From positions 1 through 48,989 of the forward strand of contig CALCZC010000013.1 in NCBI GenBank assembly GCA_937903605.1: a stretch of DNA of 48,989 nucleotides, given 5' to 3'. The number at the start of each line of letters is the position of its first letter. The first letter of the stretch is position 1. This DNA comes from an uncultured bacterium (GTDB lineage Bacteria > Patescibacteriota > Patescibacteriia > Magasanikbacterales > GWA2-37-8). Shown here one piece after another: positions 35,556 to 48,989 of this stretch. The notes beneath the pieces are model-generated. The model did no database searches, had not been told where the DNA came from, and saw only the letters and a program-made list of their open reading frames with translations. Made by a program: the position numbers and the translations under genes.

Positions 35556-36368
35556 TCAAAGAGGGCTTTTGATATTTTTGATACTGGGATTAGTCACGTG
35601 AGTATATATTTGCGTAGTGCGGATATTGGCGTGGCCCAAAAGCTCTTGTACATAACGTACATCAACGCCGTTTTCTAGTAGGTGAGTGGCGAAACTATGG
35701 CGTAAACTATGAAAGCTAGCGGGTTTTTTGATCCCTGATTTTTTCAATGCTTCTTCAAATATGGCTTGCGCGGTTCTGACGGTGAGTTTGCCACCACGAT
35801 TACTTTCAAAAAGATAATCCTCGCCGTTTCGTTCACCTGTCAAAAAATATAAATCATTTTTGATATTTTCTGGAATAACGGTTATCCTGTCTTTTTTGCC
35901 TTTGCCTTGCCTTACTTTCAAAATTAGTTCATCAAGTAAAACGTCTTTTATTTTCAAATCAACAACTTCACTCACTCGCAATCCCGCTCCATAAGCTAGA
36001 GATAATAGTAACAAATGTTTTTTATTGGTAACTTGAGATAAGATATTTTTGATTTCTTCTTTACTCAAAACTTCCGGCAAAGAATTGTTTCTTTTGGCAA
36101 ATTTTAGATCAACTCTTTGGTTATTTTTCAAAACATCATGATAGAAAAATTTTATAGCGTGTAAATACAAATTAATTGTTTGAGGAGAAAAATGCTTGTC
36201 TTGTTTTGAAAGTAAAAATTGTCTGATTTTGTCTATACTCAAAACCTCAAAATCAACTCTCAAAAAGATAAAATAATCTCTTAAACAGCCAAGATAGGAG
36301 TCAATGGTCCGAGGGCTATAATTACGTAGTCGTAACTCAATCCGAGTTTTGTCTAAAAATTCTTGCAT
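35556..36368 (-). CDS. IntI-like tyrosine recombinase (short form, no I2 insertion)
   Basis: LRLRNYSPRTIDSY N-domain; catalytic GLR, GKGKKDR, HSLRH, LLGH and TQIY; C-terminal SPL as in IntI; divergent from a cassette array. Confidence 0.92.
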   Translation of the reverse strand: MQEFLDKTRIELRLRNYSPRTIDSYLGCLRDYFIFLRVDFEVLSIDKIRQFLLSKQDKHFSPQTINLYLHAIKFFYHDVLKNNQRVDLKFAKRNNSLPEVLSKEEIKNILSQVTNKKHLLLLSLAYGAGLRVSEVVDLKIKDVLLDELILKVRQGKGKKDRITVIPENIKNDLYFLTGERNGEDYLFESNRGGKLTVRTAQAIFEEALKKSGIKKPASFHSLRHSFATHLLENGVDVRYVQELLGHANIRTTQIYTHVTNPSIKNIKSPL

Positions 36369-36473
36369 ATTTTGATAAAAAAGAGTAAAATTTGTATATA
36401 TTTATATACAACAACATTATACATAAAATTCGTAAAATATACAAATTTAGGTATATTTCACGTAGTTTTATTC

Positions 36474-36493
36474 GTATAACAACCAGTTGCGCA
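36474..36493 (+). other. Candidate attI site
   Basis: GTATAAC-AACCA-G|TT, an inverted AAC/GTT core with a 5-bp spacer, 105 bp upstream of the integrase start. The first mini-cassette begins at the G|TT. Confidence 0.6.
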
Positions 36494-36639
36494 AAATTTC
36501 GCTTCGCTCATTTTGCGCAATGTGCGGCGCATAACTGCGCCAGCTGTGCTTCGCGAAGCTTCGCACAACTGTCGCATATCCAAAATGGCGATCTGATGAC
36601 AAAGTCATCATCTCACCACTTCGGATTATGCGCCGCACA
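36487..36639 (+). mobile_element. 153-bp gene-less mini-cassette type A, copy 1
   Basis: TTGCGCAAAAT...GCCGCACA, identical to copies 2-4; inserted at G|TT. Confidence 0.9.
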
Positions 36640-36826
36640 TTATACGCAATTCAAAAAATATTTTTCTTTTAATAAGGAATTTTGACAGGCTTTTTTAAAG
36701 GGGAATAAATTTGTTTTTTTATTTATTAGAAAGGGGTATAAGGTGTTTTCTCCGCTTCGCTACGAAAACGATTTATTTATAAGGGGAAAACGAATACAAT
36801 ACAAATACCTATCACGAAAATAATTT

Positions 36827-41254: not shown

Positions 41255-43279
41255 ATGAACAATAATGAATCAAAAACAAACGGCTGGCTACATAATAGGT
41301 TTTTCCTATTTTTAACTTTTACTATTGCTTTGCTTGGTGCAAATTATTTTTTTACAGGAAACCTTTTTCCTAGCACTAATACAAAAGAGCTTTGGTTTTA
41401 CTCTGGAATTTTCATGGTTCTTTTTTCGATTCTTTTTATTGAGCCGTATTATACATCTCCTAAAAATGTTATAACCAACGCCATCCCGCTATTGCTTGTT
41501 TTTCTTTCGATAGAAAATACCTTTGAAAACAAAATCTTATGGTGGATTGCGGTTGCAATAATTTTAGCTCTACTTTTCTTTTCAATTATCGCAATTGCGT
41601 TAGAGGATAAAAATAAAAGTCCAAATCATTTGAAAAATAAATTTTCAGAATTGTTAAAAAAACTTGTAGTAATTGTCGGCAAGGGAAAAATTATCTATTC
41701 CGCAGTTTTTCTTTTATTCTTATTCGTTAACATTACATCAAAACCGGCAGAAGATTTTAATCAGATATTTGATAGTTATTTTGTGGTTTTACTAATCTTT
41801 TGGGGCTTAATTCTTTCTATTGATCCGAAAGAAATAAATAATACTTTTTCTTTAAAGAAAAAAATACTTAATGATGATGCACTAGGCGAAATTTTTGGAG
41901 TTCAATCTAGAAAAATATTTCTGGTAAAACTTTTTGAGGATAGAAAAGAAATAAAAAAGTTTGACATAGTAAGATTTAGATATTCAATGCAGGATTCAAA
42001 TGATTTTTTAATATCAGGCATTGTTTTTGACACATATTTACTTAATCAAGAGAAGTGGGCAAAGGTTTTGCAATTAGGGAAAATAGCAAAAAACAGTTCT
42101 AGTGCCGAAAAAAATGTTGTTTATAAAGTATCAAATAGCGAAGAAATCGACACACTGGAAAAAGAATTACGCACAGATCGCTTTGTTGGTATTGTGATTG
42201 AAGGCTCAAACATAGGAAAAATTAAATTTGAGTATTCAAAAAAACAAGAGGATTTACAAGAGGGAGATTTAATCGAACTAAAAACAAATGATAAAAGATT
42301 ATTTTATCAAGTAATTAACGGACTAACTGAAAAGGAATCTTTGGAACATCGAAATGAAACAAGTTTTATTAAAGGCGAGGCAATTCAACTTGGAGAATGG
42401 AAAAACGATGATCTCTCCTTTCAAAAATATGGCTGGGTACCTTCCATAAATACGCCTATTTTTAAAGCTGACACGTCTGATATTGAAGTGAAGAGTTTTA
42501 ATTATCCCGAATACAAACTTGGAATAATTCCCAATACTTCATTGCCTTCTGTAATTAACTTAGCTCAAGCAGTTAGTCATCATATGGCTCTATTAGGCGT
42601 TACTGGATCAGGTAAATCCTTTCTCGCTCGCGAAATTATAAAAGAATTAACTAATGATACAAAAATAATTTGTGTTGATTTTACAAGTGAATGGAAAAAG
42701 GAGGTTGAAAAAACAGCAATTACTCCAACAATATTAAACAAGGACAATATAGACACTTTTTTAAGCGGTACGGATAAAATTGGGATTGTTGAATTGCCCG
42801 CAATGAGTAATACAGTTGAAATTATAAGTGCCACAGAAAAACTTTTTGAAGCAATATTTAATTTTGCAAAAAAGAAATACGACGAACAAAATCCAACAAA
42901 AATATCTCTCGTACTTGAAGAAGCTCACACAATAGTTCCTGAAGAAAAATTTTTAGGTGTTAATAATTGGGATAGTAAGGCTATAGTAAATAAGATGGGG
43001 CAGATTGCCTTACAGGGCAGAAAATACGGAATAGGCTTACTTGTCATCGCACAAAGAACTGCAAATGTTTCTAAAACAGTTTTAACGCAATGTAATACAG
43101 TTATTTGTTTTCAAGCATTTGACGAGACTAGTTTTAATTTCTTAGGAAATTATGTCGGCAAAGATCTCGTTCTGACACTTCCAAATTTAAAACAATACCA
43201 TGCAATTGTTACTGGCAAAGCTATCAAATCAAATGTTCCAATGATTATTGATTTAGAAAGAAAAAAGGAGAAAGAATAA
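41255..43279 (+). CDS. Membrane-anchored HerA/FtsK-like (DUF87) ATPase
   Basis: About 6 N-terminal TM helices, HAS-barrel-like middle, HMALLGVTGSGKS, LVLEEAH and GRKYGIGLLVIAQR. Confidence 0.85.
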   Translation: MNNNESKTNGWLHNRFFLFLTFTIALLGANYFFTGNLFPSTNTKELWFYSGIFMVLFSILFIEPYYTSPKNVITNAIPLLLVFLSIENTFENKILWWIAVAIILALLFFSIIAIALEDKNKSPNHLKNKFSELLKKLVVIVGKGKIIYSAVFLLFLFVNITSKPAEDFNQIFDSYFVVLLIFWGLILSIDPKEINNTFSLKKKILNDDALGEIFGVQSRKIFLVKLFEDRKEIKKFDIVRFRYSMQDSNDFLISGIVFDTYLLNQEKWAKVLQLGKIAKNSSSAEKNVVYKVSNSEEIDTLEKELRTDRFVGIVIEGSNIGKIKFEYSKKQEDLQEGDLIELKTNDKRLFYQVINGLTEKESLEHRNETSFIKGEAIQLGEWKNDDLSFQKYGWVPSINTPIFKADTSDIEVKSFNYPEYKLGIIPNTSLPSVINLAQAVSHHMALLGVTGSGKSFLAREIIKELTNDTKIICVDFTSEWKKEVEKTAITPTILNKDNIDTFLSGTDKIGIVELPAMSNTVEIISATEKLFEAIFNFAKKKYDEQNPTKISLVLEEAHTIVPEEKFLGVNNWDSKAIVNKMGQIALQGRKYGIGLLVIAQRTANVSKTVLTQCNTVICFQAFDETSFNFLGNYVGKDLVLTLPNLKQYHAIVTGKAIKSNVPMIIDLERKKEKE

Positions 43280-43541
43280 ATGGGGTAAGCAAATAAAAGG
43301 CAAAAATTCCCTCCCCTTAAACCCCTTCCTTTTTGCCTTTTATTTGAAGAGAATAAGGAGTTTTGGATTTTGGGCATTCACCCCTAACCCCTCTGCCCAA
43401 AATCCAAAACAAAAAAACAAATTTATGATTATTGAATAAAAAGCCTGTCAAAATGAAATTGAATGAAAAATATTTTTTGAACTCGCTCCTTTCAATCGCG
43501 CCCCGCTGCGCTCTCGCCTCCGCTACGCTACGGCTCGGGGC

Positions 43542-43640
43542 GTATAACACAGCGTATGCGGTTCGGGGCTCGGCTCGCCCCTCACCCATATTTTTGCTCC
43601 CGTTGGTCGCAAAAACATCGCATACGCTGGAACGTTGCGC
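43542..43640 (+). other. attC site 1
   Basis: R'' GTATAAC, L'' CAGCGTATGCG, L' CGCATACGCTG, then GAAC-G|TT. CGTATAAC complements the cassette start G+TTATACG (36640). Confidence 0.85.
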
Positions 43641-43787
43641 AAAATTTCGCTTCGCTCATTTTGCGCAATGTGCGGCGCATAACTGCGCCAGCTGTGCTTC
43701 GCGAAGCTTCGCACAACTGTCGCATATCCAAAATGGCGATCTGATGACAAAGTCATCATCTCACCACTTCGGATTATGCGCCGCACA
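43635..43787 (+). mobile_element. 153-bp mini-cassette type A, copy 2
   Basis: Identical to 36487-36639. Confidence 0.9.
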
Positions 43788-43811
43788 TTATATGAAATAC
43801 ATCACAAAATT

Positions 43812-44612
43812 ATGATAATCGACAGTCATTTACATCTATCATACTTAGATGAAGAGAAAAAAAATCTTTTCGAAGTAAAAAAAGAACTTTTAGAATCAAT
43901 GGAAAAATACGGTATTGATTATTCGATTGTCATTCCCGATAACGTGCCAAACCCAAAATGCGCTGATACAGAAACAATGTTTAATATCATTGGAGACGAC
44001 AAACAGTTTTTTTCAATGGGAACCATAAATATTTTTCAAGATATAGAAAAACAAATATTAAATTTAGAATCACTGATAACGGCCAAAAAAATTTGCGCTA
44101 TCAAGCTTTTTCCTGGACACGACCCCTTCTATCCTGTCGATGAGAAATGCCAACTAATTTATGAATTATGCGCTAAACACGATATTCCAGTTGTTTTTCA
44201 TACTGGTGCAAACACTGGAAATGCTGATTGCGCAAAATATAATGATCCAAAATACATTGTCGAAATTGCAAAAAAATACAACACCTTAAAAGTTGTCATT
44301 TCACATTTTTTTTGGCCTAAGATGGAATATTGTTATGAGGCAACCAAAGACTTGAAAAATATTTATTACGATACTTCAGCAATGGCAGATGATGAAGTTG
44401 TTGAAAGTTCTGGTGGCTGGGATAAAGTTGTAGAAATATTGAAAAAAACTGTTTTACATAAACCTAAAAACGTTTTGTTTGGCACTGACTGGCCAATGTG
44501 CCCTGTCGATAAACACATAAAATTAATCAAAGATTTGGGATTAGATTCCAGAACCGAAGAAAAGATTTTTTTTCTTAACACAGTTGATCTATATAAACTC
44601 GAAATTTTGTGA
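43812..44612 (+). CDS. Amidohydrolase_2-family metal-dependent hydrolase (cassette gene)
   Basis: IIDSHLHL, IKLFPG, VVFHTG, ISHFFWP, YYDTS and LFGTDWP. Start moved to ATG 43812. Confidence 0.88.
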   Translation: MIIDSHLHLSYLDEEKKNLFEVKKELLESMEKYGIDYSIVIPDNVPNPKCADTETMFNIIGDDKQFFSMGTINIFQDIEKQILNLESLITAKKICAIKLFPGHDPFYPVDEKCQLIYELCAKHDIPVVFHTGANTGNADCAKYNDPKYIVEIAKKYNTLKVVISHFFWPKMEYCYEATKDLKNIYYDTSAMADDEVVESSGGWDKVVEILKKTVLHKPKNVLFGTDWPMCPVDKHIKLIKDLGLDSRTEEKIFFLNTVDLYKLEIL

Positions 44613-44620
44613 TGTACTTC

Positions 44621-44777
44621 ATATAACACCTGCCTATGCGGTTACAGAATTTTTCCAAATCCAATTAACGCCAAGGAATAAAAAATTCTTCCACCCAAAT
44701 TTTTATCTTTCTTTTCTTAAGAGAATTAACATCAAGGAAGAAAGATAAAAACTTCGCATCATCCGGATACGTTGCGC
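44621..44777 (+). other. attC site 2
   Basis: CATATAAC complements the cassette start G+TTATATG (43788); CTATGCG...CGCAT arms (imperfect, possibly hybrid); GGATAC-G|TT. Confidence 0.75.
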
Positions 44778-44924
44778 AAAATTTCGCTTCGCTCATTTTG
44801 CGCAATGTGCGGCGCATAACTGCGCCAGCTGTGCTTCGCGAAGCTTCGCACAACTGTCGCATATCCAAAATGGCGATCTGATGACAAAGTCATCATCTCA
44901 CCACTTCGGATTATGCGCCGCACA
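44772..44924 (+). mobile_element. 153-bp mini-cassette type A, copy 3
   Basis: Identical to copy 1. Confidence 0.9.
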
Positions 44925-44943
44925 TTATATAAAATTTTATACT

Positions 44944-45270
44944 ATGAAAAAATTGATTGTCGTTTTATCCAGCGGTGCATTGGTTCTACCAGAAATAGCT
45001 AATGCGTGTTATTTAACGCCCAATTTTAAGAATATTTTTTTAAGTGGCATTATTGGCCTGGTCTTATCCGCCATACTGATAACATTAATTCATAAAAAAA
45101 TAAGTAAGTTATTTGCAAAAAAATACAAATATTATTTGCTGTTTATACCAATTTACATAATAATGACCTTGATACTCATTATGATTATCCCGCTGGATAA
45201 AACGACAATTGAATGTGGGAATACTACAGGAAATGAGCAACTACCAGAAAATTTTGGCAAAACGCCATAA
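44944..45270 (+). CDS. Small membrane protein (cassette gene)
   Basis: 108 aa from ATG 44944, signal-like N-terminus and 2 TM helices. Confidence 0.7.
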   Translation: MKKLIVVLSSGALVLPEIANACYLTPNFKNIFLSGIIGLVLSAILITLIHKKISKLFAKKYKYYLLFIPIYIIMTLILIMIIPLDKTTIECGNTTGNEQLPENFGKTP

Positions 45271-45313
45271 ATACCGGAAATCAAAACGATATTTTTTCAT
45301 AGTATAAAACTTT

Positions 45314-45726
45314 ATATAACAGCGTATATACGGCTCACAAGCGAAATAAAATTATTTTTTCTTTTATGCGTGGAGATAACAACATTTTACGGTTAGACGG
45401 CGCAAATATGGATATTGATTTGACTTCCGGGGATAAAACTTCGTGGAAGCAAACAGAATGTCCATGGAATGAGGCCGAGGGTACAAATGAACACAAATGC
45501 GCCGTCAAAAATGTTTCTATTTGCAAATATTTCTGCGGAATTGAGTATTTAGACAATGTTTTGTGCTGTTATCCCAACAAAAATATGCTGGTGGATAACA
45601 AACAGAAAAAATAATTATATTTTTAATCGCTTGTTCGCCCAAATTCGGTTTCCGTTTTGTGTTGGCGCTCCGCGCAATTTTAACACAAAACTACAACCGA
45701 ACTTCGTATATACGCGTACATTGCGC
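45314..45726 (+). other. attC site 3, with a ~400-bp variable region containing an ORF
   Basis: TTATATAAC complements the cassette start G+TTATATAA (44925); GCGTATATACG (45322-45332) pairs with CGTATATACGC (45705-45715); then GTAC-A|TT. Confidence 0.75.
45366..45614 (+). CDS. Small Cys-rich hypothetical protein inside attC3
   Basis: 82-aa ATG ORF with 6 Cys; protein-like composition in otherwise structured DNA. Confidence 0.55.
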   Translation: MRGDNNILRLDGANMDIDLTSGDKTSWKQTECPWNEAEGTNEHKCAVKNVSICKYFCGIEYLDNVLCCYPNKNMLVDNKQKK

Positions 45727-45873
45727 AAAATTTCGCTTCGCTCATTTTGCGCAATGTGCGGCGCATAACTGCGCCAGCTGTGCTTCGCGAAGCTTCGCAC
45801 AACTGTCGCATATCCAAAATGGCGATCTGATGACAAAGTCATCATCTCACCACTTCGGATTATGCGCCGCACA
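45721..45873 (+). mobile_element. 153-bp mini-cassette type A, copy 4
   Basis: Identical to copy 1. Confidence 0.9.
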
Positions 45874-45934
45874 TTAAGTGAAATTGAATTTTGACAACGA
45901 TTGTAAAATACAAGTTCATTTATAAAATAACCTT

Positions 45935-46330
45935 ATGAAAATTTTTGTTCAATTTGTTTCAAGCTTAGTGGGCGGCATATTGTTAGGCATCATTGGACTT
46001 TTTATTGGCTCCATGATTGGCGGCAATTTCGGCTTCCCTGAATTCGGAGGTAACGTTGGATATCAAGCAGGAGGCCCTTTTTTCGGAATTATTGGAATTT
46101 CGCTAGGAAGCCTCCTTGGAATAATAGCTGCTAAAAGAATTCAAAAGGATCAGTTTATATATTCAATAACCTCAATAGCCGCCATTATAACAACTATTAT
46201 CGGCTTACTTCTTTTTGATTACAATATGCCGCCAGCTATTGGCTTTAGTATACCTTTGATGCCAGCAATAGTATTAATAATCGTCACAAATTGGCAAAAA
46301 TTTTTTAAAATTAAACTAAATAAAACTTAG
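45935..46330 (+). CDS. Gly-rich multi-TM membrane protein (cassette gene)
   Basis: 131 aa, about 4 TM helices with GxxxG repeats. Confidence 0.7.
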   Translation: MKIFVQFVSSLVGGILLGIIGLFIGSMIGGNFGFPEFGGNVGYQAGGPFFGIIGISLGSLLGIIAAKRIQKDQFIYSITSIAAIITTIIGLLLFDYNMPPAIGFSIPLMPAIVLIIVTNWQKFFKIKLNKT

Positions 46331-46345
46331 CCAAAATTCAACATC

Positions 46346-46432
46346 ACTTAACACGGGATACACGGTAAAGTCTTTCGCGGAAAGACTTTACTCAAATTGC
46401 TACGCAACTTCGCTTATCCCGGAACGTTATCT
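46346..46432 (+). other. attC site 4
   Basis: CACTTAAC complements the cassette start G+TTAAGTG (45874); CGGGATA...TATCCCG arms; internal hairpin GTAAAGTCTTTC/GAAAGACTTTAC; GAAC-G|TT. Confidence 0.85.
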
Positions 46433-46596
46433 AAAATGTCTCTCGCTCCGCTCGCTCCATTTTAGATAATGTGGCGCGTATATCTCCGCTGTTCTCCTCG
46501 CGTCGCTTCGCGACACTTCAGATAACAGCGGATAATCTGTAATATCTGTCTGACGACTTCGTCGTCATCCAGCTACTACAGATTATCCGCGCCACA
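46427..46596 (+). mobile_element. 170-bp gene-less mini-cassette type B
   Basis: TTATCTAAAATG/CATTTTAGATAA hairpin, then AATGTGGCGCG...CGCGCCACA|TT main stem with two branches; same layout as type A with a different sequence. Confidence 0.8.
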
Positions 46597-46659
46597 TTGT
46601 GTGAAATATTTTAGAAAAATTTAAATTTATATCATATTTATTAATAATATATAATTACC

Positions 46660-48036
46660 ATGAAAAAAACACTTATTATTTTAATTACAGTGACGGCTGT
46701 TTTATTAATCGGAGCTTTTTATTTTTTCAACAGAGAATCAGCTGGACAGAAACAAGAACAAGTTTTATTAGAACAGACATATGAAATTTCTAAAGAGTAT
46801 CTTTCTCTTCGTCTCCAAACCGATGATGTTTTGATTAATGCCAAGAATTATCCTGATTATGAATCATGGAATACAGAAATGACAAAAATTATCAGTGATT
46901 GGAATAATTTAGAAAAAAAATCACAAGAATTGCAAGAAACTGCTTTTGAAATTGTAGAATTGTCTGCTATAGATTTTGATTTAATCCCAACAGCCAATGC
47001 TTATACTGCCAAAGAAATCTCAGATATTTATGACGGAGCGCCTAAATTCCAAGGTATCGCAACTCTAGCCAAACATTTGGGAGTGGATGCCAAAAGAGCC
47101 CAAGTGATTTTAGACAAGGCGCAAGCTGAGATAAGCGCCGGTGTTTTTAGTGAAGAAGGAGATGCCTTTGAAAATCTGGAAAATACCGCGATTGTAGTGA
47201 AAGATGGCTGTAAAGTGGCCGGTTTTGTGGGCGGAGTAGTAATAACCGGAGGTGCTGCGGGATTTGCAGCTGCCGGTACGATGGCCCAAGTAGGTACAGT
47301 TGTTGTAGGAGTAGATCTGGCACTTGAAGTGACAGAAGACGGAGCTCAAATTGCTTTTGGAGATAAAAATAAAGTGTCTTCTTTTGTCAAAGATATCAGA
47401 ACAGTTACCGAACCCGTTGCAAACGTATTGGCAATTACCAATATACCCGGCAACCTTGGTACCGCATACGGGAAAATCGAAAGCGTTATGATAGGATTGG
47501 AAAAGTTTCGAGAGACTGCTCAAGAAGGTAAGGTAATCGGTATTAACCTTAACAATTTCAAATACCAACCATCTTTTCAGCTTATCAAAAAAACCAAATA
47601 TCCGGGAACAGTAACAGTAGCAGAAATGGAAAAGGCGGAAGTAGAAGAATGGTTAAAAAGTTTAAACAAAAAACAAGAGCCGATGTCTCAAGAAGAAATT
47701 AAAAAGTTTTTATCAAGCTCGCTTAAATCGATAAAACAAGAAAAAGAAGATGCAAAAAATGAGACTATAGATACCGCAGAAAAAGCAAACAACGAAGTTA
47801 AGCTGATGTCAGTTGATGAATTTCAAGAACTTTTTGACGAAGAAGTGGCTTTTGAAAGTGTTTCAAAAGCCAAGAAAATTTTTGGCGAACCCGACGAAGT
47901 TAATATGTTTGAGGATGGGTATGGAAATTATGTTTATCGCAAAAGATTGGTATATCCAAACGGCAATGTTGCAAAGTTTACAATAAGATTTCATAATAAG
48001 GACGTTGAAGGTTACAGTATCGGACTAGATGAATAA
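46660..48036 (+). CDS. Membrane-anchored hypothetical protein
   Basis: 458 aa; N-terminal TM, helical region and a central Gly/Ala-rich hydrophobic hairpin. Confidence 0.75.
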   Translation: MKKTLIILITVTAVLLIGAFYFFNRESAGQKQEQVLLEQTYEISKEYLSLRLQTDDVLINAKNYPDYESWNTEMTKIISDWNNLEKKSQELQETAFEIVELSAIDFDLIPTANAYTAKEISDIYDGAPKFQGIATLAKHLGVDAKRAQVILDKAQAEISAGVFSEEGDAFENLENTAIVVKDGCKVAGFVGGVVITGGAAGFAAAGTMAQVGTVVVGVDLALEVTEDGAQIAFGDKNKVSSFVKDIRTVTEPVANVLAITNIPGNLGTAYGKIESVMIGLEKFRETAQEGKVIGINLNNFKYQPSFQLIKKTKYPGTVTVAEMEKAEVEEWLKSLNKKQEPMSQEEIKKFLSSSLKSIKQEKEDAKNETIDTAEKANNEVKLMSVDEFQELFDEEVAFESVSKAKKIFGEPDEVNMFEDGYGNYVYRKRLVYPNGNVAKFTIRFHNKDVEGYSIGLDE

Positions 48037-48081
48037 TAGTATTGTTAAATTTTTGAAAAAATTTTTAATTAACTAAAAAAT

Positions 48082-48423
48082 ATGAAAAAAAGAGTATTTG
48101 TGGCTATTTTATCAGGAGCTTTTTTGGGTATTTTTTGTATAATCGGAGTAAGTAGTAGACTTGGTTTTGCCGGAAATGAATTGTTTATATTATCTACTTG
48201 GATAAATAGAGTAGTCATGGGTTTAGTAATAGGCTTGGCGCCATATTATCAAATCCAAAATAATACCAAAAATATTATATTGCGCGGAGCGTTGCTCGGA
48301 CTCATAATAAGTGGTTCATTTTTCTTAGCCACAGACTTCAAAGATATCCTAGGATTTTTTGCAGGAATTGTTTACGGGATAATTATAGATTTTGTTGCGA
48401 CAAAATACGGAGAAAAGAAATAA
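48082..48423 (+). CDS. Four-TM membrane protein
   Basis: 113-aa hydrophobic ORF. Confidence 0.7.
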   Translation: MKKRVFVAILSGAFLGIFCIIGVSSRLGFAGNELFILSTWINRVVMGLVIGLAPYYQIQNNTKNIILRGALLGLIISGSFFLATDFKDILGFFAGIVYGIIIDFVATKYGEKK

Positions 48424-48434
48424 AAATAAAAAAT

Positions 48435-48650
48435 ATGAAAATATTATATATTTTTTTGCTCGGTGCTTGTGTTCTTTTGGGAGCAATAATTTTAAATTTA
48501 GTTGCCAATTTTATCGGACTTACCACTTGGTATGAATTTTTAAAAAATCCAAGCAAAACAAATACTATTTCTTATATCTGGCTTTTTGTTTTTTATCCAC
48601 TGGGACTGGGCTTAATAGCATATTTTGTTATCAAATTGTTAAATATTTAA
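48435..48650 (+). CDS. Small two-TM membrane protein
   Basis: 71-aa hydrophobic ORF with a TWYEFL loop. Confidence 0.6.
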   Translation: MKILYIFLLGACVLLGAIILNLVANFIGLTTWYEFLKNPSKTNTISYIWLFVFYPLGLGLIAYFVIKLLNI

Positions 48651-48665
48651 TTTTAAATTTTAAAT

Positions 48666-48694
48666 ATAAAACACTCCGATAAGGAGTGTTTTAT
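48666..48694. terminator. Bidirectional terminator
   Basis: ATAAAACACTCC-gataa-GGAGTGTTTTAT. Confidence 0.8.
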
Positions 48695-48989
48695 AGTGCC
48701 CGCCCCAAAGGGGCCCCTTCGGGGGTGTGGGAATCTGCTTCGCCTCTCGTCGTCTTCCGACTCCTCGGGCTAGCCACCAGCTCGCGGTTTTACTCGCCCG
48801 CAAGCTCGTAAAACATCGCTCCGCTGTTCTCATCCTGACGCGAGCAAACAGTTTTGCTCGCTCCCCAGACAAAATAACACAGACCAAAAAAGGTCTGTGT
48901 TATTTTGTCTGGGGCGGGAATTCCTCGTCGTCTCGCCGACAAATATCGGCTCGACTCCTTGCCCTGGGCAGCGTCGGATTCACACTGTG
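48695..48989 (-). repeat. Tandem GC-rich palindromic elements related to the tRNA-fMet-associated element
   Basis: The reverse complement of 48744-48778 matches 20578-20612 at 30/35. A perfect 23-bp inverted repeat lies at 48863-48885/48892-48914. Confidence 0.75.

Follow-up and report, generated by a model that had tools for sequence, protein, structure and literature searches.

What is the short, strongly folded, gene-less unit that stands between two gene cassettes near one end of contig CALCZC010000013.1, and how does it come to be there? This contig of 48,989 nt, from an uncultured bacterium of the Magasanikbacterales (Patescibacteriota, assembly GCA_937903605.1), was analysed over its whole length and is called the window below. 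It carries a gene for a tyrosine recombinase of 270 aa and an array of gene cassettes interspersed with small folded units, the mini-cassettes (minis) of types A and B. We conclude that the unit in question, type B, probably is a gene-less cassette, made up of an attC-type site only, of an integron-like array run by a divergent 270-aa Xer/IntI-like recombinase. Coordinates are listed in Table 1, and the sign ↓ marks a crossover.

Parts, fold and ends of type B

A sequence-only reading of this DNA had described a 170-bp unit with a 5' hairpin, a main stem, two branches and a CACA↓TT end. All of these elements were found in their places, and the minimum-energy DNA fold of type B agrees with them, consisting of the head hairpin, the main stem and the two branches. 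The main stem has 9 bp, is GC-rich and starts immediately after the head hairpin. The top strand folded with −43.2 kcal/mol, compared with −19.5 ± 3.0 kcal/mol for shuffled sequences (z = −7.9), and the bottom strand folded with −52.0 kcal/mol (z = −10.6). None of 200 shuffles folded as well as type B.

The unit begins immediately past the last G of the attC-type site of gene cassette 4 (attC4) and reads G↓TT...CACA↓TT. These ends are independently confirmed by the breaks of contigs from other metagenomes (46427 and 46598), and the boundary is ambiguous by 2 nt, as TT is present at both ends. Type B is composed of an 11-12-nt head (TTnnnnAAAAT), a short loop, a complementary R''-type arm and a recombination-site fold ending in A↓TT; it is a cassette head plus a recombination site. 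The loop of the head hairpin lies where gene cassettes have their gene, and it holds no cargo. The largest open reading frames (ORFs) inside the unit encoded 22-29 aa from GTG or TTG starts, and there was no ORF of 70 aa or more between the crossovers. By eye, the 3' foot of branch 2 (...CAGATTA) appears to correspond to the ACTTCGCATA motif at the 3' end of the gene-cassette attC sites and of attI.

Compensatory conservation of the fold

Types A and B were 61% identical. Among their 53 comparable pairs, 29 were unchanged, 16 were changed on both sides with pairing kept, none was changed on one side only, and 8 were broken. These 16 double and 0 single changes, together with further types found in related loci, bear out the proposal that A and B belong to a structured family under selection for its fold and are not a duplication accident.

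MAFFT alignments of the six complete types mis-paired the stems, and the covariance model was therefore built from types A and G only, with the fold of A and with B left out; the remaining types were aligned by Infernal. Type B was found with 72.8 bits (E about 1e-15), and types C, H and F were found with 56-62, 45 and 34 bits, respectively. The model also matched the truncated types D, J and I at contig ends. The covariance search proposed from the sequence recovered B and four further types (C, F, H and D). All matches were on the array strand, beside homologous 270-aa recombinases. At E ≤ 1 there was no match near 100 more distant Xer-type genes (1.5 Mb in all), none in the rest of the window, and none in 0.2 Mb of long contigs of close relatives except one truncated A. 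Minis were restricted to the arrays of this recombinase family: 0.77 Mb of loci from close relatives yielded none elsewhere than in arrays, and 20 of 20 full or partial copies were located at att crossovers in a single orientation. Phage records, plasmids and viral contigs gave no match to type B.

In a model-guided alignment of 8 distinct rows, standard pairs made up 90.2% of the pair cells, compared with 70.3 ± 1.6% with shuffled partners and 35-43% when the structure was slid by 1-3 columns. Compensatory changes on both sides were present at 35 of 56 pairs, including 5 of 11 pairs in the head-hairpin helix and 9 of 14 in helix 2, the main stem. The expected covariation was thus found above 500 of 500 shuffles, none of which reached any of five covariation measures, and above all slid controls. 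The four inner positions of the head hairpin had 10 different sequences in 14 types, all of them matched on the opposite side, with a few G-T pairs.

The structure was conserved as the sequence-only reading had proposed, but an AATGTG...CACATT core was not its invariant part. A strict search for this core with complementary stems found nothing in the relatives, and the main stem ends read AATGCGG...CCGCATT in type C and AACGGCG...CGCCGTT in type H. The crossover boxes were AAT...A↓TT in types B, A, C, F and G and AAC...G↓TT in types H, J and L and in all gene-cassette sites of the array.

Preference for the bottom strand

For each of the six complete types, folding of the bottom strand was more favourable than that of the top strand by 5-11 kcal/mol, and the bottom strand showed 3-6 G-T pairs at positions where the top strand has A-C mismatches. 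For five types, the strand difference was exceeded in 0-4 of 150 dinucleotide shuffles. The top-strand loops of the minis repeatedly have the sequence GCTNCGC. Its bottom-strand complement, d(GCGNAGC), is described as an 'extraordinarily stable mini-hairpin' of DNA (PMC13037366). In 1,576 nt of distinct minis, 20 bottom-strand and 2 top-strand copies of d(GCGNAGC) were counted, with about 0.4 expected, compared with 3 copies on each strand in the first 36 kb of the window. Type B carries this motif at the tip of branch 1 (GCTTCGC at 46505), and the tip of branch 2 shows its C-GAA-G turn, likewise on the bottom strand.

Integron integrases recombine the bottom strand of attC. The bottom-strand bias and the DNA mini-hairpin loops favour single-stranded DNA of the bottom strand and not a fold of the sense transcript, and the fold of type B is probably used in this single-stranded form. 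Of the two natures that had been offered for the element, single-stranded DNA or RNA, the first is favoured by the strand preference in 6 of 6 types and by the mini-hairpins, and a sense RNA is not.

Neighbours of type B in other metagenomes

The array was compared with Logan (De Bruijn) contigs from further metagenomes of sludge, bioreactors and wastewater, and eight runs covered the type B junction. Type B formed its own unitig (46427-46598) in runs X2, X3, X5 and X8, with a depth of 31-44 compared with 5-12 for its flanks, a 3-4-fold excess. A separate unitig of high depth indicates that type B is a repeat, whose shared sequence runs from the TT after G to the TT after CACA. On its left side, one neighbour was the end of attC4 as in the window, others were different attC-type ends (for example ...ACTTCTCATACACACAAACG↓), and in X2, X3, X5, X6 and X11 the final 26 nt of mini-A (CACCACTTCGGATTATGCGCCGCACA↓) were found. 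On its right side there were at least 4 different cassettes, all starting with TTGTnnGAAA.

In X4 and X7, mini-A followed cassette 4 (...GGAACGTT↓GCGCAAAATTTC) and the tail of mini-A stood before a diverged cassette 5, so that A occupies the junction that holds B in the window. A 3.3-kb contig of X8 started with the 3' end of B and finished with the 5' start of B, so that an insert of 3.2 kb has B on either side. The joint 45873>46427 in X2 and X5 had lost 553 nt, exactly gene cassette 4 (45874-46426), and the joint 45717>46424 had lost 706 nt (153 + 553), showing that whole units are lost at the same crossovers.

Other joints were seen in short contigs. In a 55-nt contig of X3 (46571-46605), the 3' end of B runs on into the region left of attI in reverse complement (TTATACGAATAAAACTACGTGAAATATAC). 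This hints at a related locus, or at an inversion that involves the palindromic attI and the end of a mini. In the source sample, a 127-nt contig of X1 at 43636, a minor variant, joined the attC-type end of cassette 1 directly to the head TTAGCTGAAATATATG..., which is the head of the first cassette in loci L005, L083 and L107.

Recombinase, attI and array

The recombinase scored 225 bits against XerA_Arch NF040815, above the cut-off of 220, and 208 bits against TIGR02249 integrase_gron, under the cut-off of 265. The TIGR02249 match was split in two stretches, which indicates that the middle, integron-specific insertion is absent. The score against NF011946 was 133, far under 435. The best PDB relatives were archaeal XerA (4a8e and 5hxy), followed by Vibrio IntI4 (2a3v), again in two stretches. 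Judged by these profile scores, the enzyme lies between Xer (XerA) and IntI.

The attI-type site had the consensus (A/T)TCG(T/C)ATA(A/G)AAACGAG↓TT in about 30 relatives. By eye it reads as a dif-type palindrome of 11-(6/7)-11 nt, for example TTTTCGTATAA-AAACGAG-TTATGTGAAAT in locus L008, and its right arm resembles the XerD arm of E. coli, TTATGTTAAAT.

On the plus strand, the array consists of mini-A, a 7-kb restriction-modification/HerA block, mini-A, an amidohydrolase cassette, mini-A, a small membrane-protein cassette, mini-A, another small cassette, type B and further genes, and every gene cassette in the window is directly preceded by a mini. The four copies of A were 100% identical over 153 nt, and in run X1 the mini-A unitig had a depth of 59 compared with about 12. 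Each gene cassette ends in an attC-type site of its own, with R'' (A/C)T(A/T)TAAC, a covarying stem (for example CAGCGTATGCG/CGCATACGCTG) and GAACG↓TT. When the end was joined to the start of the same cassette, as in an excised circle, a long stem was formed with a bulge of 3-4 nt beside the AAC/GTT box (3 nt in attC4). Cassette-specific inverted repeats of 24-29 nt surround the ORF of each gene cassette, so that pairing of the R-box goes far past the classical 6-7 nt and the stem of the circular junction reaches about 25-30 bp.

In every gene cassette, the reverse complement of the head comes after the gene, whereas the two arms of the minis are 4-40 nt apart. The head hairpin is thus no special invention of the minis, as pairing of the cassette start with R'' is present in every cassette of the array. 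Towards their 3' end, the minis carry an ACTTCG(C/G)AT-type motif, followed by a 10-14-nt stem and (A/G)↓TT, and by eye this layout is the same as that of the gene-cassette sites (AACTTCGCATA..., 9-11 nt, G↓TT) and of attI (ACTTCGCATAGAAACGAG↓TT). Compared with the gene-cassette sites of its own array, type B has AAT/ATT instead of AAC/GTT, lacks the bulge at the crossover and carries an extra hairpin, branch 1. Its head/R'' helix also continues straight into the main stem, with no unpaired spacer, unlike these sites.

Several other structured segments were observed in the array. The attC-type site of cassette 3 has an 82-aa Cys-rich ORF in its loop (45353-45613); this ORF is exactly missing in an X5 contig (joint 45352>45614, 261 nt) and so behaves as an insertion inside a recombination site. 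A hairpin-rich and GC-rich block of 263 bp at 48697-48959 was skipped in an X5 contig (joint 48696>48960). This block holds a perfect hairpin of about 23-28 bp at 48858-48919, was not matched by the mini-cassette model and seems to be a further discrete insertion with structure, of a kind other than the minis. A conserved leader hairpin, GGTGTTTTCTCCGCT(T/A)(T/C)CGCT(A/C)CGAAAACGATTT, with a GCTTCGC-like loop, is located at 36735-36775 and was also present in several genomes in front of first cassettes that are unrelated to one another, within their 5' leaders (loci L005, L083, L091, L099 and L106).

Mini-cassettes in related loci

The recombinase family has thousands of members in bacteria of the candidate phyla radiation; in a large protein collection, E ≤ 1e-60 was reached by 4,576 proteins. 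Its close relatives had 50-67% identity, were all of about 270 aa and were found in many metagenome-assembled genomes of Patescibacteria and in metagenome contigs. The upstream DNA was read for about 45 of these relatives. The attI crossover was mostly followed by a gene cassette (head TTnnnnGAAAT or GACAT), and by a mini in about a quarter of the loci. Complete minis were of six types (A, B, C, F, G and H) with lengths of 148-187 nt, and each of them, folded alone, showed the head hairpin, the main stem and two branches. Minis are optional: one junction of the type C locus had none, an array of attC-type sites in locus L007 was free of minis, and in L091 attI was directly followed by the head TTATACGCAATTCAAAAAATATTTTTC, which is the same head that comes after mini-A in the window.

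Long contigs carrying close relatives of the integrase (L163-L177) also had arrays without minis. In these contigs (relatives P0002, P0064 and P0045), the recombinase and the housekeeping flank were identical and the first cassettes varied by sample, being mostly restriction-modification or defence genes (EcoRI-type methylase with GmrSD, N6_N4 methylase with ResIII, and HinfI). Variable first cassettes beside an identical recombinase indicate that the arrays act as variable defence islands.

Contigs of the relatives often stopped 90-230 nt upstream of the recombinase gene and, where readable, inside a mini. The mini repeats systematically break short-read assemblies at the recombinase locus.

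Table 1. Features of the array in the window and mini-cassettes in loci of related recombinases
Feature	Position or locus	Strand	Remarks
Tyrosine recombinase, 270 aa, Xer/IntI-like	35556..36368	-	Divergent from array; Phage_int_SAM_4 and Phage_integrase
attI-type site ATTCGTATAACAACCAG↓TT	36470..36488	+	First mini-A inserted at crossover
Mini-cassette type A, copy 4	45721..45873	+	Other copies 36487-36639, 43635-43787, 44772-44924
Inverted repeats of gene cassettes	43788-43811/44603-44626, 44925-44953/45291-45319, 45874-45902/46323-46351
attC-type site, gene cassette 4	46346..46426	+	R'' ACTTAAC; stem CGGGATA.../...TATCCCG; GAACG↓
Mini-cassette type B	46427..46596	+	170 nt, gene-less
Type B head hairpin	46427..46469	+	12 bp, 19-nt loop
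Type B head arm TTATCTAAAATG paired with R''-type arm CATTTTAGATAA	46427-46438 and 46458-46469	+
Type B main stem, 5' arm (AA)TGTGGCGCG	46470..46478	+	Stacked directly on head hairpin
Type B branch 1, TCCGCTGTT/AACAGCGGA	46485..46532	+	Apex GTCGC-TTC-GCGAC; bottom strand d(GCGAAGC)
Type B branch 2, TAATCTGTA...TACAGATTA	46533..46585	+	Apex TGACGAC-TTC-GTCGTCA
Type B main stem, 3' arm CGCGCCACA(TT)	46588..46596	+	End is crossover A↓TT
Next cassette head TTGTGTGAAAT	46597..46607	+	Consensus TTnnnnGAAAT
Mini-cassette type C	L015		148 nt, 4 copies
Mini-cassette type F	L089		180 nt, 1 copy
Mini-cassette type G	L099		148 nt, 1 copy
Mini-cassette type H	L107		187 nt, 1 copy
Truncated minis at contig ends	D (L004/L086), E (L012), I (L085), J (L092), K (L094), L (L098), M (L104), N (L105)
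Contigs stopping near recombinase	L002, L004, L006, L012, L014, L016, L084-L086, L092-L096, L103, L104, L161, L162

Proposed working of type B

The 270-aa recombinase is the probable enzyme acting on type B, and its substrate would be the folded bottom strand as single-stranded DNA. When this strand is single-stranded, the head hairpin would stack on the main stem, so that the two terminal bases of the unit come to lie opposite each other in a single uninterrupted helix. This stacking would bring the upstream attC end and the downstream cassette head side by side, and a pair of recombinase dimers at (G/A)↓TT could then excise the unit as a small circle. The excised unit might be inserted at attI or behind any attC-type site. 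As a small and nearly perfectly paired unit, it would multiply in arrays and move between them as a non-autonomous passenger of the recombinase.

Active spread is indicated by types A and C, which are present in four identical or near-identical copies per array while the ordinary sites have diverged (63-79%), and by the exchange of A and B at one junction and the tandem A-B arrangements. The minis may be selfish rather than useful. A benefit for the host is possible and might consist of insulation between cassettes, of extra sites speeding up shuffling, or of promoters as in Vibrio (PMC11014356).

Comparison with known systems

Integrons are the textbook gene-capture device of bacteria, with an integrase that carries a special insertion and with attC sites that have AAC/GTT boxes and extrahelical bases. 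Their arrays, like that of type B, are divergent from a tyrosine recombinase gene, and their sites fold preferentially on the bottom strand. The gene-less integron cassettes of Vibrio and Treponema (PMC11014356, PMC6557892) are, like B, bounded by ...↓TT crossovers, carry a folded imperfect-palindrome site at the 3' end and have a start that is complementary to their own R''. Type B shares with attC imperfect inverted repeats that fold as a single strand, a structure conserved over sequence, and presence or absence as an exact unit. In contrast to IntI, the partner recombinase of B lacks the specific insertion, and the R-box complementarity is 11-14 nt compared with 6-7 nt in classical integrons. 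Known gene-less cassettes have a spacer body with a promoter, whereas the minis are essentially without non-site DNA; unlike these cassettes, B is multi-copy and identical inside an array. We class type B as a cassette without a gene that probably belongs to an integron analogue, a system which works like an integron but departs from it in several of the features that define membership.

Long attC sites, such as the repeats of Vibrio cholerae, have about 125 nt and branched, variable terminal structures. The site part of type B (about 127 nt) is similar in length and, likened by layout, in its three-way-junction-like top above a basal stem. It differs in that the basal stem is fully paired and the loops are capped with d(GCGNAGC) mini-hairpins.

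Integrative mobile elements exploiting Xer (IMEX) and CTX phage are integrated by host XerCD through an attP site of folded single-stranded DNA that mimics dif. Like B, these passengers have no recombinase of their own, and they exploit a Xer-type enzyme, as B probably does; unlike them, B stands in arrays of many small cassettes, each with a folded site, and has no phage or plasmid body. In the single-recombinase Xer systems XerS/difSL, XerH/difH and archaeal XerA, dif is next to the gene, and here too a site of dif-like layout, attI, is directly upstream of the recombinase gene. REP/BIME, Correia/NEMIS and RUP elements and miniature inverted-repeat transposable elements (MITEs) are, like B, short, GC-rich compared with the genome, strongly folding, multi-copy and assembly-breaking, but B was found only at the crossovers of one type of array, in one orientation and with cassette-like ends. 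No description of integron-like arrays or mini-cassettes in Patescibacteria or other members of the candidate phyla radiation (CPR) was found in the literature searched.

Alternative explanations

Type B could act mainly as RNA, that is as a leader, an insulator, a small RNA or a promoter-carrying spacer that controls the downstream cassette, with mobility still possible. We consider this improbable, although minis lie directly upstream of every gene cassette in the window, a metatranscriptome contig with a depth of 2.6 covers 46423-46587, and the gene-less cassettes of Vibrio and Treponema have promoter activity, which is unpredictable in silico (PMC11014356, PMC6557892). In consensus scans, neither B nor A contained a sigma-70-like promoter or a terminator-like site, promoter-like matches being located downstream of the minis in the cassette leaders, and a Rfam scan of 42500-48989 gave only sub-threshold chance matches (mir-2763 with 24.7 bits at a cut-off of 50, and CRISPR-DR22 with 21.7 bits). 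The sense strand is moreover the one that folds worse in all six types, with mismatches where the bottom strand has G-T wobbles, and the loop motif is a DNA-specific mini-hairpin of the bottom strand. The RNA contigs are of low depth and strandless and may be carry-over of DNA.

The other explanations deny that B is a cassette. As the distal half of a long compound recombination site of gene cassette 4 or 5, it would account for the order of attC-type site and then mini at each junction of the window and for the ACTTCGCATA-type motif that the 3' part of the minis has in common with the ends of gene-cassette attC sites. The context data largely refute this, and we regard it as very unlikely: B was also found behind mini-A, behind other attC ends and before several different cassettes; A replaces B at the junction in X4 and X7; mini-free junctions and attI sites are common in the relatives; and in the source-sample variant attC1 stands directly before a gene cassette. 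Just as unlikely is a MITE-like transposon or a relic that targets att sites, such as IS1111-attC elements or group IIC-attC introns, moved by a transposase or reverse transcriptase from elsewhere and leaving a TT duplication. Elements that target attC sites are known (PMC3001079), and B is short, multi-copy and hairpin-rich, with TT on both sides and identical copies per array. However, the long inverted repeat is not terminal at the left, where the head hairpin comes first, and B has neither a terminal inverted repeat pair nor a target duplication of the transposase type. All insertions were exactly at attI- or attC-type crossovers in one orientation, B starts with a copy of an ordinary cassette head and finishes with a copy of its tail, Rfam gave no match to a group II intron or to any other family, and the close-relative loci held no copy outside arrays.

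Several points weigh against the reading of type B as a gene-less cassette of an integron-like array. No joint removing exactly B (46426>46597, attC4 to cassette 5) was present in the eight runs over the junction, and the joints in the Logan contigs are supported by sides of 26-30 nt. The action of the recombinase on B is read from sequence and fold. Classical attC sites have AAC/GTT, an unpaired spacer and extrahelical bases, whereas B has AAT/ATT and neither of the latter. In type H, the bottom-strand excess was not significant beyond composition. The pair counts come from a small sample that was fitted to the model structure. The predicted co-location with a short integrase was found, as matches lay beside homologous recombinases, but all related loci were retrieved via the recombinase, so that it is partly circular. 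The metatranscriptome contig also leaves some room for a role of type B as RNA.

Biological meaning

The logic of integrons, with an array, exact crossovers and sites that probably fold on the bottom strand, is found here with a short Xer-like enzyme that lacks the insertion. The arrays beside this recombinase family are rich in restriction-modification and defence genes and differ by sample, and the minis in them explain the breaks of CPR assemblies next to the recombinase gene. A further reading, which we think unlikely but not negligible, is that the minis are free-living, portable recombination sites and belong to a 'proto-integron' of Xer descent with a wide distribution in Patescibacteria. 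Inserted next to ordinary genes or operons, they would provide the folded site by which any DNA segment becomes a mobile cassette. If this were true, the old question of the birth of integron cassettes would become directly testable, and cassette recombination on folded single-stranded DNA would need no IntI-specific domain. As gene-less cassettes, the minis are the barest of their kind, a recombination site alone, and offer a compact natural substrate of 148-187 nt for studies of enzyme recognition; they probably are a parasite of a gene-capture system.

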